A stretch of DNA of 64,000 nucleotides from Eledone cirrhosa (Eukaryota): positions 23,126,001 through 23,190,000 of the forward strand of contig OZ024765.1 in the NCBI GenBank assembly GCA_964016885.1, in the 5' to 3' direction. This document shows, one piece after another, positions 8,678 through 45,565 of this stretch; the first letter of the stretch is position 1; each line of letters begins with the position of its first letter. The position numbers were made by a program, and so were the translations under genes. The notes beneath the pieces are model-generated. The model worked only from the letters and a program-made list of their open reading frames with translations. It was not told the origin of the DNA and did no database searches.

Positions 8678-9341
8678 TAATAGGATATGTGTTCCTTCAC
8701 GCACAAGGCGCTAAGGGACGCATGTATTGTCCAACCAAATGCCAATGTGGTTCAATGGCAGGTTAATAAATTAACGAGCCAGAACATATATAAACAAGGT
8801 TTAGCAAGGTAAAGTCAATTTTTTAAAATTTATTTTGAAACTTTTTCATTATTTGCTAAACCTTGTTTATATATGTTCTGGCTCGTTAATTTATTAACCT
8901 GCCATTGAACCACACTGGCATTTGGTTGGACAATACATGCGTCCCTTAGCGCCTTGTGCGTGAAGGAGCACATATCCTATTATTACTACTCTCCTCTACT
9001 GTTGAGACAAATTGGGTCGCTCCGACTGCTGCTAGTGATAGTTGCGGCCGGTTTGACCTACCTCCCTCTGCCTCTATCTTTACTTTGGCCCTTGAAAAAA
9101 TTGTTTCTTCATCCACTCTCATCCCAGGAACAGTTTTGATAGCGCTAGTTCGTAATTTAAATTCAAGAATTTTATATTCTTCGAATGAAAAGAACCTTCT
9201 GACGAGAATCTTTCTTTGCAACGAAGGCCGTATGGTCTCCGTTTATTTTTGGGATTCGAAACCGATCGGTAAAGGTAACTATAGTAGGTAAAGTCAATTT
9301 TTTAAAATTTATTTTGAAACTTTTTCATTATTTGTTAAACC
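8678..9341 (+). mobile_element. Retrozyme-like element: 479-bp monomer plus inverted left arm
   Basis: 8807-8862 is directly repeated at 9286-9341 (period 479). 8678-8807 is the reverse complement of 8852-8981. Contains a hammerhead; (TA)n on the left. Confidence 0.75.
9194..9276 (+). ncRNA. Type I hammerhead ribozyme (enlarged helix II)
   Basis: acctt-CTGACGA-[gaatct...gggattc, 52 nt]-GAAA-ccgatcgg-TA-aaggt. Palindromic helix III; predicted cleavage after 9271. Confidence 0.85.
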
Positions 9342-9347
9342 TATATA

Positions 9348-10216
9348 CAGGGTGCGGACGATATTTGTTCGCAATTTTCAACTGCTAATTTTATGCAAAT
9401 TTTTTTTACTTCCGTTGTCACTCTTGTCTTCATAAAAACAGTGACTATATTTCCATTATTTATTTTCAGAATAATTGATTATGAATAATTTTGAACCTCC
9501 AAATTTGTGGAAGAGACACGGAGTTCTTCTTGGAATCCGCGCCGGGAGGACAAATAAGGAAATTTCAGACTTTCTCCGCTTCAGCAGGAGAATGGTGTCT
9601 CATCCAAAGATGTGCCCAGAGTTATGCAGACAAAGTTTCCAGTGACAACATTGGTCTTAGGTGTCGTCAGCAGTCAAGGTGACGTCATGCCACCTCACTT
9701 CTTCCCTGAGGGCCTCAAGCTGAACACCGATGGCTACATCCTCGTTCTAAGCGAGGTAGTAAAGCCCTGGATCGACCAGGTAACTGCAGGTAGGCCGTAC
9801 GTGTGGCAGCAAGACTCAGCGCACTGCCATACCAGCCGAAAGACCCAAGCCTGGCTGTCAGAGAACTTCATCGACCACACTTCACCTGACATCTGGCCTC
9901 CCAGCTCGCCTGCCTGCGACCCCTTCAAACTTCTTTGTGTGGGGCGCAGTGGGACGAGACACCAACAGATCTGGCTGCAATACGAAAGACGATCTGAAGG
10001 CCAGGATCACAAGTGCTAAGTCGGGGGACAGTGAAGAAGGCCTGTAGCAGGTTCCGAGGCCGTCATCAAAGCCAATGGCGGGTTTATCGAGTGAGATTGA
10101 AAGAACAAGTCATGAAGACAAACTGACCCAAGTTTGATAAATATATCTTAAAAAATAAAACTACTGTCTTATTTTTTCTTAGACTAATCTTGCGAACAAA
10201 TATCGTCCTCACCCTG
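9348..10216 (+). mobile_element. Internally deleted Tc1/mariner-superfamily (maT-like) DNA transposon
   Basis: About 27-bp TIRs cagggtg(c/a)ggacgatatttgttcgcaa with TA flanks. Transposase remnant 9612-10019 (VWQQDSAHCH...WPPSSP), frameshifted. Confidence 0.9.
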
Positions 10217-10328
10217 TATATATATATATATATATGTGTGTGTATAAATATATATGTGTATATATATGTATATATATATGTATATATATATATATATATA
10301 TATGTATATATATATGTATATATATAAT

Positions 10329-43900: not shown

Positions 43901-44316
43901 ACGGGATGGAAGAAGTTCAGGGAGCCACTGCTAGCTGCAAAAGGCTTTCCCTTCAAAATGAAAGGCAGACTGTATGATGCGTGTATCCGAACAGCAATGT
44001 TACATGGTAGTGAGACCTGCGCGCTGAAGGTGGAAGACTTGTGTAGATTAGAGAGAAACGAAGCCTGCATGCTCCGATGGATGTGTAATAGTAATATACG
44101 CGAACGACAAAGCATAAATGAATTGAGAGAGACAGAGCATAAGAGGAATCAAATGCTGTGTGCAGGAGAGGCGGTTGTGTTGGTATGGACATGTGATGCG
44201 TATGAAGGAAGACAGCTGCTTAAAAAGGTGCAGAGCACTAGAAGTCGATGGAAACCGCGGAGTGGGGAGACCCAAGATGACCTGGGATGAGGTGATAAAA
44301 GCCGACCTTACCCAAT
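40906..44316 (+). mobile_element. RTE LINE (subfamily A), most of the ORF, degenerate, split by a 573-bp insertion
   Basis: EN at 40911-41958, RT from 42532. The 3' part closely matches 13928-14935; stops and frameshifts present. Confidence 0.92.
41959..42531. mobile_element. Unclassified non-coding insertion, possibly a solo LTR
   Basis: Interrupts the RTE frame between direct repeats catgttt (41952-41958 and 42532-42538). tgtata...tataca at 41977 and 42533. Confidence 0.55.
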
Positions 44317-44529
44317 TATATGCATAATTACACACACACACACACACACATATACGTGTGTATATATATACACACACATATATACACATACATATGTGAA
44401 GGTTATGAAGCCATGAAAACATGCACCTGGAAGAGTTTCAATTTATTTTCATAAATTCTTATTGGTTAATTTAATAACCGGATGGTGGCTTGTTGATTGT
44501 CAACGCTCTTTGACACTCATATATATATG

Positions 44530-45565
44530 TATATTTATATACATAAATTACACAATAATCAAAGCTATGTTCAAATCCTTTTATTGCTGACAATCGTTTC
44601 TTCCAAACTATCCGTTGGAATCATCTGAGCAGTAGCAAGTCTATCATGGCAGTGGGTGGGTGGTGGGGGTGGCTGAACTTGCCTGTAGAACAATGAGGGA
44701 GTGGGTGGAGCTGGTCAAGTGTTGAAAGTGAATTCTATATGGCAAATTCTAAGGGTTGTGTATGAAACTAGGCCAGAGGAAGCAGGGGAAAAAGGATTCT
44801 GGAGAAAATAGAGAAGGGACGTTATAGAATAGGTAAATCAATTGAGATTAGAAGATAATAAATAAGAGAAAAATATATAAAAATATAAAATTGGATGGTA
44901 AGAAGTGATAAAAAACTGTAGAGTCTAAAACAGCTGCTATAATTAGTTGGTGTTGCGTTTTCGGCCAATGCTATCTTTAATTTACTGGGGTGGGGGTACT
45001 GAGGCTACAACAGCCCGATGGGTTGCCTCGGGAAAGGGGGAAGAGGATAGGGAGTGGAAGGAAGTGATAGGAAGAGATAAAGGGAAGAAAAAATAGAAAG
45101 GAAAAGAAAAGAGGTACATCTACTTATGTGTGCTGGGGTTTCCCCTATCTTGTTCGGCAAGTGGGGAAAAGGAAGATGTTGCAGCCATTGTCTACCCACC
45201 CGGGTCATGAGGGGGTTTGAGGGTGAGGTAAGTCCTGCGCAATCCGTGTTTACATGCAGTTACAAGTTCGTCTTTTTTGTTTAAGAGTTGGTCCTTTGTA
45301 AACAGCATTTGTAATGTTTCTTCTGAGCATAAATTACACGGACGGTGTGGACAGTAAGTTCCAAGTAAGATTGTATGTTATGTTATTATCTTGGAGGTCC
45401 CAGATGTGGCCTGAAAGTGTAGTGGCATGTCGCCAGGCCGGGTTTTGGAACATATGTCGGTGTTGGTAGAGCTGGGTCTTAAAGTCACCAGCGGTTAATC
45501 CTATATAGGCTTTGTTGGAGGTTTCCGTCCTCACGTTGATCTACCAATGCAACGTGAGGACGGAC
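44530..45565 (-). mobile_element. Second, older Penelope-like element 3' part
   Basis: AYIGLTAGDFKTQLYQH...TTLSGHIWDL...LLNKKDELVTACKH. Degenerate hammerhead at 44585-44631; short inverted piece at 45539-45565. Confidence 0.82.
44585..44631 (-). ncRNA. Degenerate hammerhead (U4A)
   Basis: Minus strand: tgct-CAGATGA-ttccaa-cggatagt-ttggaa-GAAA-cgattg-TC-agca. Confidence 0.6.

Follow-up and report, generated by a model that had tools for sequence, protein, structure and literature searches.

The stretch of DNA analysed here (the window) comprises 64,000 nt of a 3.0-Gb animal genome assembly (Eledone cirrhosa, contig OZ024765.1). It contains many TA microsatellites, fragments of what we take, from their translations, to be RTE and Tx1-like long interspersed elements (LINEs), and one presumed short interspersed element (SINE). 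Five loci in the window consist of a minus-sense arm followed by a plus-sense arm with a 5'-to-5' (head-to-head) junction. Three of them belong to tandem non-coding families (R479, R535 and R467) and two are Penelope-like elements (PLEs), predicted to be of Hydra type. A sequence-only reading had described this geometry, and it was found at 5/5 loci, the right arm of the fifth being only 26 nt long. The chance of five equal orientations in one window is 1 in 32 if orientation is random; the five loci had been called direct local evidence linking coding and non-coding elements, a wording that is too strong, as on their own they are only suggestive. Across the genome, the outer ends of such insertions lie at two fixed positions per family, termed sites A and B, and most two-arm loci combine one end of each kind.

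Locus 1 (8677-9342) is formed by R479, a 479-bp tandem family. Its left arm (8677..8840, minus strand, 164 nt) ends at site B (monomer position 177) and overlaps, via a near-palindromic stretch, the right arm (8807..9342, plus strand, 536 nt), which holds one 479-bp monomer and a further 57 bp and ends 11 nt short of the modal site A (68). At this end, only ATATA precedes a DNA-transposon-like insert (9348-10216) with terminal inverted repeats and TA ends, situated in the TA run right of the locus and presumably, judged by its translation, of Tc1/mariner type. Locus 2 (11139-11971) belongs to the 535-bp family R535, with a left arm of 567 nt (11139..11705, minus strand, slightly more than one monomer) that ends at site A and a right arm of 262 nt (11710..11971, plus strand) that ends at site B. 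Locus 3 (15557-18502) is an array of the 467-bp family R467. Its left arm (15557..16718, minus strand) spans 2.5 monomers up to site A (319), its right arm (16714..18502, plus strand) 3.8 monomers up to site B (388), and the arms overlap by 5 nt at the junction.

Locus 4 (29584-33638) is a PLE that we call HYD1. The left arm consists of the 3' non-coding region (29584..30932, minus strand), the outer end of which is site A with a short repeated initiation unit, and of a reverse transcriptase (RT) fragment (30935..31460, minus strand) joined to it across an internal jump. The inversion junction carries a templated piece of 26 nt with GGLYRDDA codons (31459..31484, plus strand), and the right arm (31479..33638, plus strand) encodes the CxCx5C linker and the GIY-YIG endonuclease (EN), followed by the 3' region up to site B. 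The left arm of locus 5 (44535..45538, minus strand) contains a frameshifted GIY-YIG EN, putatively of Hydra type, and a 3' region with a hammerhead variant (core from 44627), and its end aligns with site A of HYD1. The right arm (45539..45564, plus strand) is 26 nt of the element's own internal EN-coding sequence, overlaps the left arm by 15 nt and adjoins a SINE-like repeat instead of TA. What this locus retains of the element is a broken EN and the 3' region. The last 100 nt are about 70% like the hammerhead region of HYD1, and the nearest relatives (HYD2, 79-90%) differ there: the hammerhead within the 3' end at 44535-44645 is absent from HYD2, in the 3' region of which no core was found. 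Judged by this hammerhead, locus 5 may be either a separate subfamily or a chimera.

The sense of the arms follows from the open reading frame (ORF) at loci 4 and 5 and from the type I hammerhead at locus 3. Since the hammerhead-like cores of loci 1 and 2 are non-canonical, their sense also rests on a hairpin that they have in common with HYD1 in the same orientation. The expectation that the outer ends run into TA-rich repeats held for most of them and failed at the locus 5 plus arm and, with its mere ATATA, at the right end of locus 1. As had been noted, no target site duplication (TSD) could be resolved at any of the five loci. We ascribe this to the microsatellite target, as TSDs are visible elsewhere: among 68 loci with a flank that is not pure TA, most of which were uninformative, TSDs of about 9-13 bp were seen at non-TA targets (L041, L047, L057 and L065). 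They resemble the 8-10 bp given for PLEs in PMC3846280, and together with the head-to-head inverted copy and the one-sided tail they place these insertions in the PLE type.

The elements were then tallied in their own genome, scoring the best 37-40 of 326, 2138, 2016, 2338 and 5299 candidates. Once overlapping loci had been merged and the duplicate L070/L071 reduced to a single entry, the classified set comprised 98 loci. Two arms were present in 61/98 (R467 20/32, R535 16/24, R479 10/17, HYD1 15/25), all minus then plus. Eight of 11 further loci also had two arms, again 8/8 head-to-head, resulting in 69/69 head-to-head and no tail-to-tail two-arm loci for the four main families. In the controls (copies in the flanks and in the window, plus 16 fetched SINE places), an opposite-strand arm occurred in 0/13 RTE, 0/9 Tx1-like and 1/38 SINE copies (1/60 in total), and the single positive SINE had been fetched because the SINE match table had already flagged it. 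The tally thus came out as the sequence-only reading had predicted: neither equally frequent tail-to-tail structures nor an equally common head-to-head geometry in RTE or SINE copies, either of which would have spoken against it, was seen. As family and control sets were sampled differently, 61/98 overstates the true share of two-arm loci; orientation and pairing are unaffected. Match tables gave second arms for 0/40 Tx1-like, 0/40 RTE and 1/40 SINE copies, but these are weak controls, as HYD1 itself reached only 5/39 there. A genome search with the RTE stretch 14400-15020 gave no candidates and carries no weight. Outer ends of two-arm loci were TA-rich in 101/120 cases. The flanking sequence, proposed as a second discriminator, did not serve as one: 15/38 SINE 3' flanks are TA-rich too (RTE 0/10, Tx1-like 1/8), and a TA-rich flank was therefore rejected as a PLE signature.

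The outer ends cluster at two fixed 3' positions per family, 74-164 nt apart, and the segment between them corresponds to the PLE tail. Sites A and B lie at monomer positions 314-319 and 388 in R467, about 541 and 659-663 in R535, and 57-68 and 174-179 in R479; in HYD1 they are the unit end and a position 164 nt further, and in HYD2, the relatives of locus 5, they are 80 nt apart. The tails accordingly measure 74 nt in R467, about 80 in HYD2, 109 in R479, about 120 in R535 and 164 in HYD1. Using site windows set from the data, one A end was paired with one B end in 67/70 two-arm loci with both ends at a site (binomial P = 5e-17 against a probability of at most one half): 51/53 in the main sample, 8/8 in the further loci, of which four could have been guessed from earlier tables and four could not, and 8/9 in HYD2. 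The ratio of A/B to same-site loci was 44:1 for non-coding and 23:2 for coding elements. Left out of the count were L036, L041, L061, L068, L089, L097, L107 and L118, each with one end away from both sites or cut by the fetch edge, and, among the 28 HYD2 loci, L164 (11 nt short of B), L161, L163 and L177 (internal inversions), L154, L174 and L175 (edge) and the one-arm loci; the A assignment of L080 is weak. The second arm starts at a fixed site in 53/61 loci and mostly overlaps the first. Further, the one-arm loci L043, L048, L060, L078 and L187 conceal a second arm of 10-26 nt from the opposite site. Such cryptic arms were kept out of all counts because automatic calls included chance matches (L053, L140, L191 and L195). 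Both R467 ends also recur in independent short-read contigs, as loose TA ends at 17032 and 17101.

In HYD1, HYD2, R535 and R479, site A is immediately followed by a hairpin: an outer stem of 4 bp encloses an inner one, and the 3' strand carries a bulge of 2 nt. The outer stem is GCTC/GAGC in HYD1, ACTC/GAGT in HYD2 and GTTC/GAAC in R535 and R479, that is, with compensatory changes. In the window, all on the plus strand, the site-A hairpin lies at 8875..8910 in R479 (GTTC/GAAC stem, TT bulge), at 11854..11877 in R535 and at 33480..33513 in HYD1 (GCTC/GAGC stem, TT bulge), where it starts the 164-nt tail; a site-B hairpin of R479 lies at 8990..9007. A descriptor derived from HYD1, R535 and R479, with HYD2 seen afterwards, matches no more than 12 nt from site A in HYD1, HYD2, R535 and R479, and equally close to site B in HYD1, R535 and R479, the site-B check being confined to families with sequence beyond B, to which HYD2 does not belong. 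Its background is 0.5-5% of sense positions, mostly sites A and B themselves. A relaxed hairpin was present within 16 nt of the tail start in 8/17 other fold-back families with one-sided tails (0.33 expected from shuffles); these are fold-back inserts found in the flanks, and some may not be of PLE type. A small fold-back insert with a one-sided tail and a degraded copy of the hairpin is also present in the window (8417-8540), its family recurring in L198 and L212. Several copies of the terminal words of the hairpin were additionally seen at 57508-57660, next to an 8.8-kb array of 48-bp repeats.

HYD1 has a single ORF, with full frames of 832 aa in L192 and L201, in which the RT is followed by a C-terminal GIY-YIG EN. 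In Pfam only GIY-YIG was matched, short of the cut-off (E = 0.017), and the RT fragment of locus 4 gave no Pfam match. By eye, RWR, DKT, CNCRANRTC (CxCx5C), CNLC (CxxC) and CQH (CxH) were recognized and no CCHH, a set that agrees with the definition of the Hydra clade in PMC8557442. The tandem unit measures 4199 bp, and outer ends are TA-rich in 27/30 cases. A type I hammerhead variant (33384..33437, plus strand, CCGAAGA core) with three readable helices lies about 47 nt upstream of site A. Judged by motifs, ORF order, hammerhead, tandem unit and (TA)n target, HYD1 at locus 4 is predicted to be a Hydra-clade PLE.

Among the non-coding families, R467 carries type I hammerheads at 16750..16821, 17217, 17684 and 18151 on the plus strand and at 15768 and 16235 on the minus strand (Rfam HH9, 37.7 bits, under the gathering score of 52). 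With dispersed tandem monomers, a type I hammerhead in each and no ORF, it has the sequence traits of retrozymes of the non-LTR kind (LTR, long terminal repeat). R479 has a putative non-canonical hammerhead-like core (9199..9239, plus strand, CUGACGA ... CGAAG) that is identical in 94/99 monomer matches, and R535 a putative minimal one (11237..11265, minus strand, CUGAUGA ... GAAA) with only one helix well formed. Both deviate from the canonical type I hammerhead, R479 by GAAG instead of GAAA and R535 by a type III-like order, and for this reason we file them as non-autonomous PLE-type repeats, though they seem to work like retrozymes. Minimum-energy folds did not recover the hammerhead folds and were no better than those of shuffles. 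Rfam miRNA matches were rejected as hairpin or TA noise.

A test for rolling-circle templates in R467 yielded 5 private variants that every monomer of a locus carried versus 77 confined to a single monomer. A few patterns of period 2 or 4, with variants recurring every second or fourth monomer, were seen in L052, L038 and L037. These patterns are only suggestive of a rolling-circle template, as a homogenised, unsampled source array would give the same; a circular RNA template for the arrays is compatible with the test. R467 arrays longer than 9 kb exist (L203-L205, L046 and L061), their ends lying beyond the fetched sequence. The family is present in four organisms from four studies and is therefore common to related species or samples, and a relative 68% alike (L222) has the same A/B form at homologous sites. 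No RNA data set was listed among the carriers.

The two arms of a locus were compared with each other and with those of other loci. Arm divergence within versus between loci is 0.6 vs 2.5% for HYD1, 1.0 vs 1.7% for R535, 0.7 vs 1.4% for R479 and 0.08 vs 0.35% for R467; the distance between the arms of one locus is thus smaller by a factor of 1.7 to 4 than that to arms elsewhere. Minor alleles are common to both arms of a locus in 105/117 cases in HYD1, 9/9 in R479 and 8/12 in R535, compared to 702/2912, 54/161 and 55/336 between loci. In 7/15 A/B loci of HYD1 neither arm contains the other (the window locus, L189, L193, L196, L198, L199 and L223; the L199 pair is disjoint), so neither was copied from its partner. 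Among the short-monomer families, it is usual for one arm to be nested in the second. Junctions mostly show 1-9 nt of overlap or short inserts, and their phases are mostly unequal. A ends always lie on a short TA-compatible stretch, and in 7/17 A arms of HYD1 the terminal 7-9 nt are repeated once or twice more at the start, which may reflect realignment of the primer at initiation. Short terminal units repeated 2-3 times at this start site were seen in L186, L187, L196, L195 and the window (29577-29590) and are reminiscent of telomerase-type realignment.

We consider it likely, on the basis of these comparisons, that a PLE EN-RT protein cleaves the two DNA strands and uses a separate RNA site for priming at each of the ends, and that non-coding arrays use the same route. 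The earlier proposal of one integration route for non-coding monomers and coding PLEs is thereby supported: the two-site rule is common to both, as is the hairpin, except in R467. In the model we propose, all five loci would be insertions made by the EN-RT protein of PLEs (of the Hydra clade for loci 4 and 5), the RNA of which would carry two reverse-transcription start sites, A and B, with the tail between them. The protein would nick both strands of AT-rich DNA about 10 bp apart, leaving two 3' ends, of which one would be primed at A and its counterpart at B, with a bulged hairpin just 3' of each site setting the position. Both antisense cDNAs would run until truncation, and their 3' ends would then be joined. 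The A/B pairing would be accounted for by a dimer of the protein bound to a single RNA or to two units of the same multimer or circle; this step is the least certain, and we give it about even chances. Non-coding monomers with the same cis signals would be reverse-transcribed in trans, one event yielding an entire multimeric array. R467, which follows the two-site rule without the hairpin, may use another PLE family. For long B arms, either strand displacement or another unit of a multimer or circle would be required, and the 26-nt arm of locus 5 may stem from off-site second priming or from fold-back. A bolder version, to which we lean slightly less than half-way, is programmed double priming: a dimeric EN-RT would read two tandem bulged hairpins in one RNA and make one cDNA from each, every cDNA serving one end of the break, and the hairpin pair would act as a portable cis signal giving at least a dozen non-coding families here, among them hammerhead arrays made from circular RNA, access to Hydra proteins.

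Several points weigh against this model. The evidence in this analysis consists of sequence comparison, in samples (the best 37-40 of 326-5299) biased to long young copies. Three loci have same-site ends (L070 A/A, L202 B/B and L178 A/A), in 8/61 two-arm loci an end falls outside both sites or at the fetch edge, and 37/98 are one-armed by BLAST, several of these being the ones that conceal 10-26-nt second arms. Long B arms pass through A, for which strand displacement or another template is needed. The hairpin descriptor, itself written with the sequences in view, does not match R467, and the relaxed form of the descriptor was written with about half (about 8) of the flank tails already seen. 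Within the window, BLAST matched no autonomous partner to any non-coding family, and no genome-wide partner search was made. Conversion between arms could be another source of the shared alleles. Finally, PMC11167929 reports no difference in start site for top versus bottom strands; this is compatible with our model, though, as either arm can be A.

Four other explanations were weighed. Both ends could be primed at B alone, with the tail then removed from one arm by endonuclease resolution, as suggested in PMC8557442. Such priming would give A/B pairs too and accounts for one-sided tails, and one B/B locus exists (L202). We nevertheless regard it as unlikely: initiation units are repeated at the A end in 7/17 HYD1 arms, A ends always sit on a TA-compatible stretch, the hairpin follows both sites, two loci are A/A, and two start sites are used in vitro (PMC11167929). 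In a fold-back scenario, the first arm would arise by target-primed reverse transcription and the second would be copied from the nascent cDNA or an antisense template, akin to the self-priming proposed in PMC3846280. The shared alleles of the arms, the short fold-back pieces found where the arms meet (such as the 26 nt of locus 4, and L070, which is palindromic about a TA spacer) and the nesting of arms in short-monomer families agree with it. This scenario is already strained by the 7/15 non-nested HYD1 loci, among them the disjoint L199 pair, and by the mostly unequal junction phases, and leaves the exact stop of the second arm at the other fixed site unexplained, so that we hold it to be very unlikely.

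The arrays could instead be mobilised by another RT (RTE or Tx1-like) or have grown by local unequal crossing-over from single pseudo-long-terminal-repeat (pLTR)-derived copies (local growth being a proposal of 10.64898/2026.07.22.740005). Here it counts that no partner ORF was matched by sequence, that RTE, Tx1-like and SINE copies sit in TA runs too, and that some adjacent monomers have common variants, so local change does occur. Still, those copies lack the two-arm form (1/60), both arms of the arrays are multimeric with ends at fixed sites, and the hairpin is common with Hydra elements; we find this explanation a shade less credible again. Independent neighbouring insertions, later DNA inversions or assembly fold-back artefacts might also be invoked: TA runs are repeatedly targeted by insertions, other elements crowd the flanks, and palindromes can arise in long-read assembly. 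With 0/69 tail-to-tail loci, A/B pairing, allele sharing, TSDs around both arms (L041, L057 and L065) and A and B ends in independent contigs, this is extremely improbable.

Other arrangements were noticed in the window. At 12112-15020, a Tx1-like 3' fragment (minus strand) and an RTE 3' fragment (plus strand) stand head-to-head over a 28-nt TA spacer; being of different families, they probably stem from two insertions into a single TA run. An older composite of inverted and direct repeats (33663-34371), adjoining locus 4 on its right, is possibly another PLE-type insert. At 27841-28555, 20146-20940 and 39091-39261, TA runs flank units that have either direct repeats at their termini (89 bp at 27841/28467) or palindromes inside them.

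Among known systems, PMC8557442 describes for PLEs an adjacent inverted copy, a one-sided tail of 30-40 bp, the (TA)n bias of Hydra elements and non-autonomous Chlamys elements, and names the origin of tandem and inverted PLE structures as an open task. PMC3846280 reports head-to-head copies as the most frequent form, with the tail on one inverted pLTR and 8-10-bp TSDs, and proposes self-priming. HYD1 is like the Hydra-clade EN+ PLEs of PMC8557442 in its C-terminal GIY-YIG, RWR, DKT and CxCx5C motifs, lack of CCHH, pLTR hammerhead, (TA)n targets, inverted 5'-truncated copy at the 5' end and tail at one end. It differs in its unit of 4.2 kb versus mostly <3 kb for the described families; in addition, the tails here are 80-164 nt instead of 30-40, the hammerhead cores are variants, and near-obligate A/B pairing and a tail hairpin were not found for Hydra-clade PLEs in the part of PMC8557442 at hand. 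In vitro, the Poseidon protein of PMC11167929 cleaves and extends both strands of AT-rich DNA and starts at two internal sites bounding the tail, and a dimer is predicted; pairing was not part of that test. The families here have the two start sites bounding a tail and the AT-rich target in common with Poseidon_Ac, which belongs to another clade, has its sites within the ORF start and, in the part consulted, comes with no A/B pairing count and no treatment of non-coding RNAs.

PLEs have been proposed as retrozyme helpers from co-occurrence and pLTR similarity (PMC7229834; 10.64898/2026.07.22.740005). The arrays here resemble the animal non-LTR retrozymes of these two sources in being dispersed tandem arrays of a few hundred bp per monomer with a hammerhead in each and no ORF. 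They differ by longer monomers (467-535 bp versus 150-450 bp in PMC7229834), by the non-canonical cores of R479 and R535 and by head-to-head arrays with fixed paired ends, which we did not find described in the passages of both sources consulted; these passages likewise make no reference to tails or to the orientation of arms. Non-autonomous Chlamys PLEs (MRC1, Chlamys-N4; PMC8557442, PMC9977147) are sequence-like their autonomous families at the 3' end and mostly lack hammerheads, whereas here only a small structure is common.

Head-to-head PLE inserts, one-sided tails and two start sites are thus already known, and what seems new here is that two-site pairing is near-obligate and extends to non-coding hammerhead arrays, together with the candidate hairpin. 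Our literature search found no A/B pairing count, tail hairpin or head-to-head retrozyme arrays, parts of which may appear in older Penelope papers and supplements. Beyond co-occurrence and pLTR similarity, the insertion scar itself is common to PLEs and non-coding arrays, in numbers. What emerges is a rule, namely that one arm comes from A and one from B, together with a candidate RNA element (17-36 nt) open to mutation and rescue in the in vitro assay already available. Arrays would arrive as whole palindromic multimers, which bears on the origin of satellites and on sources of double-stranded RNA in TA-rich genomes.

In L1 twin priming, the second primer reportedly anneals at an internal position that varies, and the arms mostly do not overlap. 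It has in common with the loci here that both target ends prime cDNA, that the product is head-to-head, and that inversion microhomology and TSDs occur. In contrast, both starts are fixed here and the arms copy the same RNA region. L1-type twin priming was therefore rejected for these insertions as a class, the second start lying at a fixed site in 53/61 loci; it fits only a minority such as locus 5, the 26-nt arm of which is the L1-like case.

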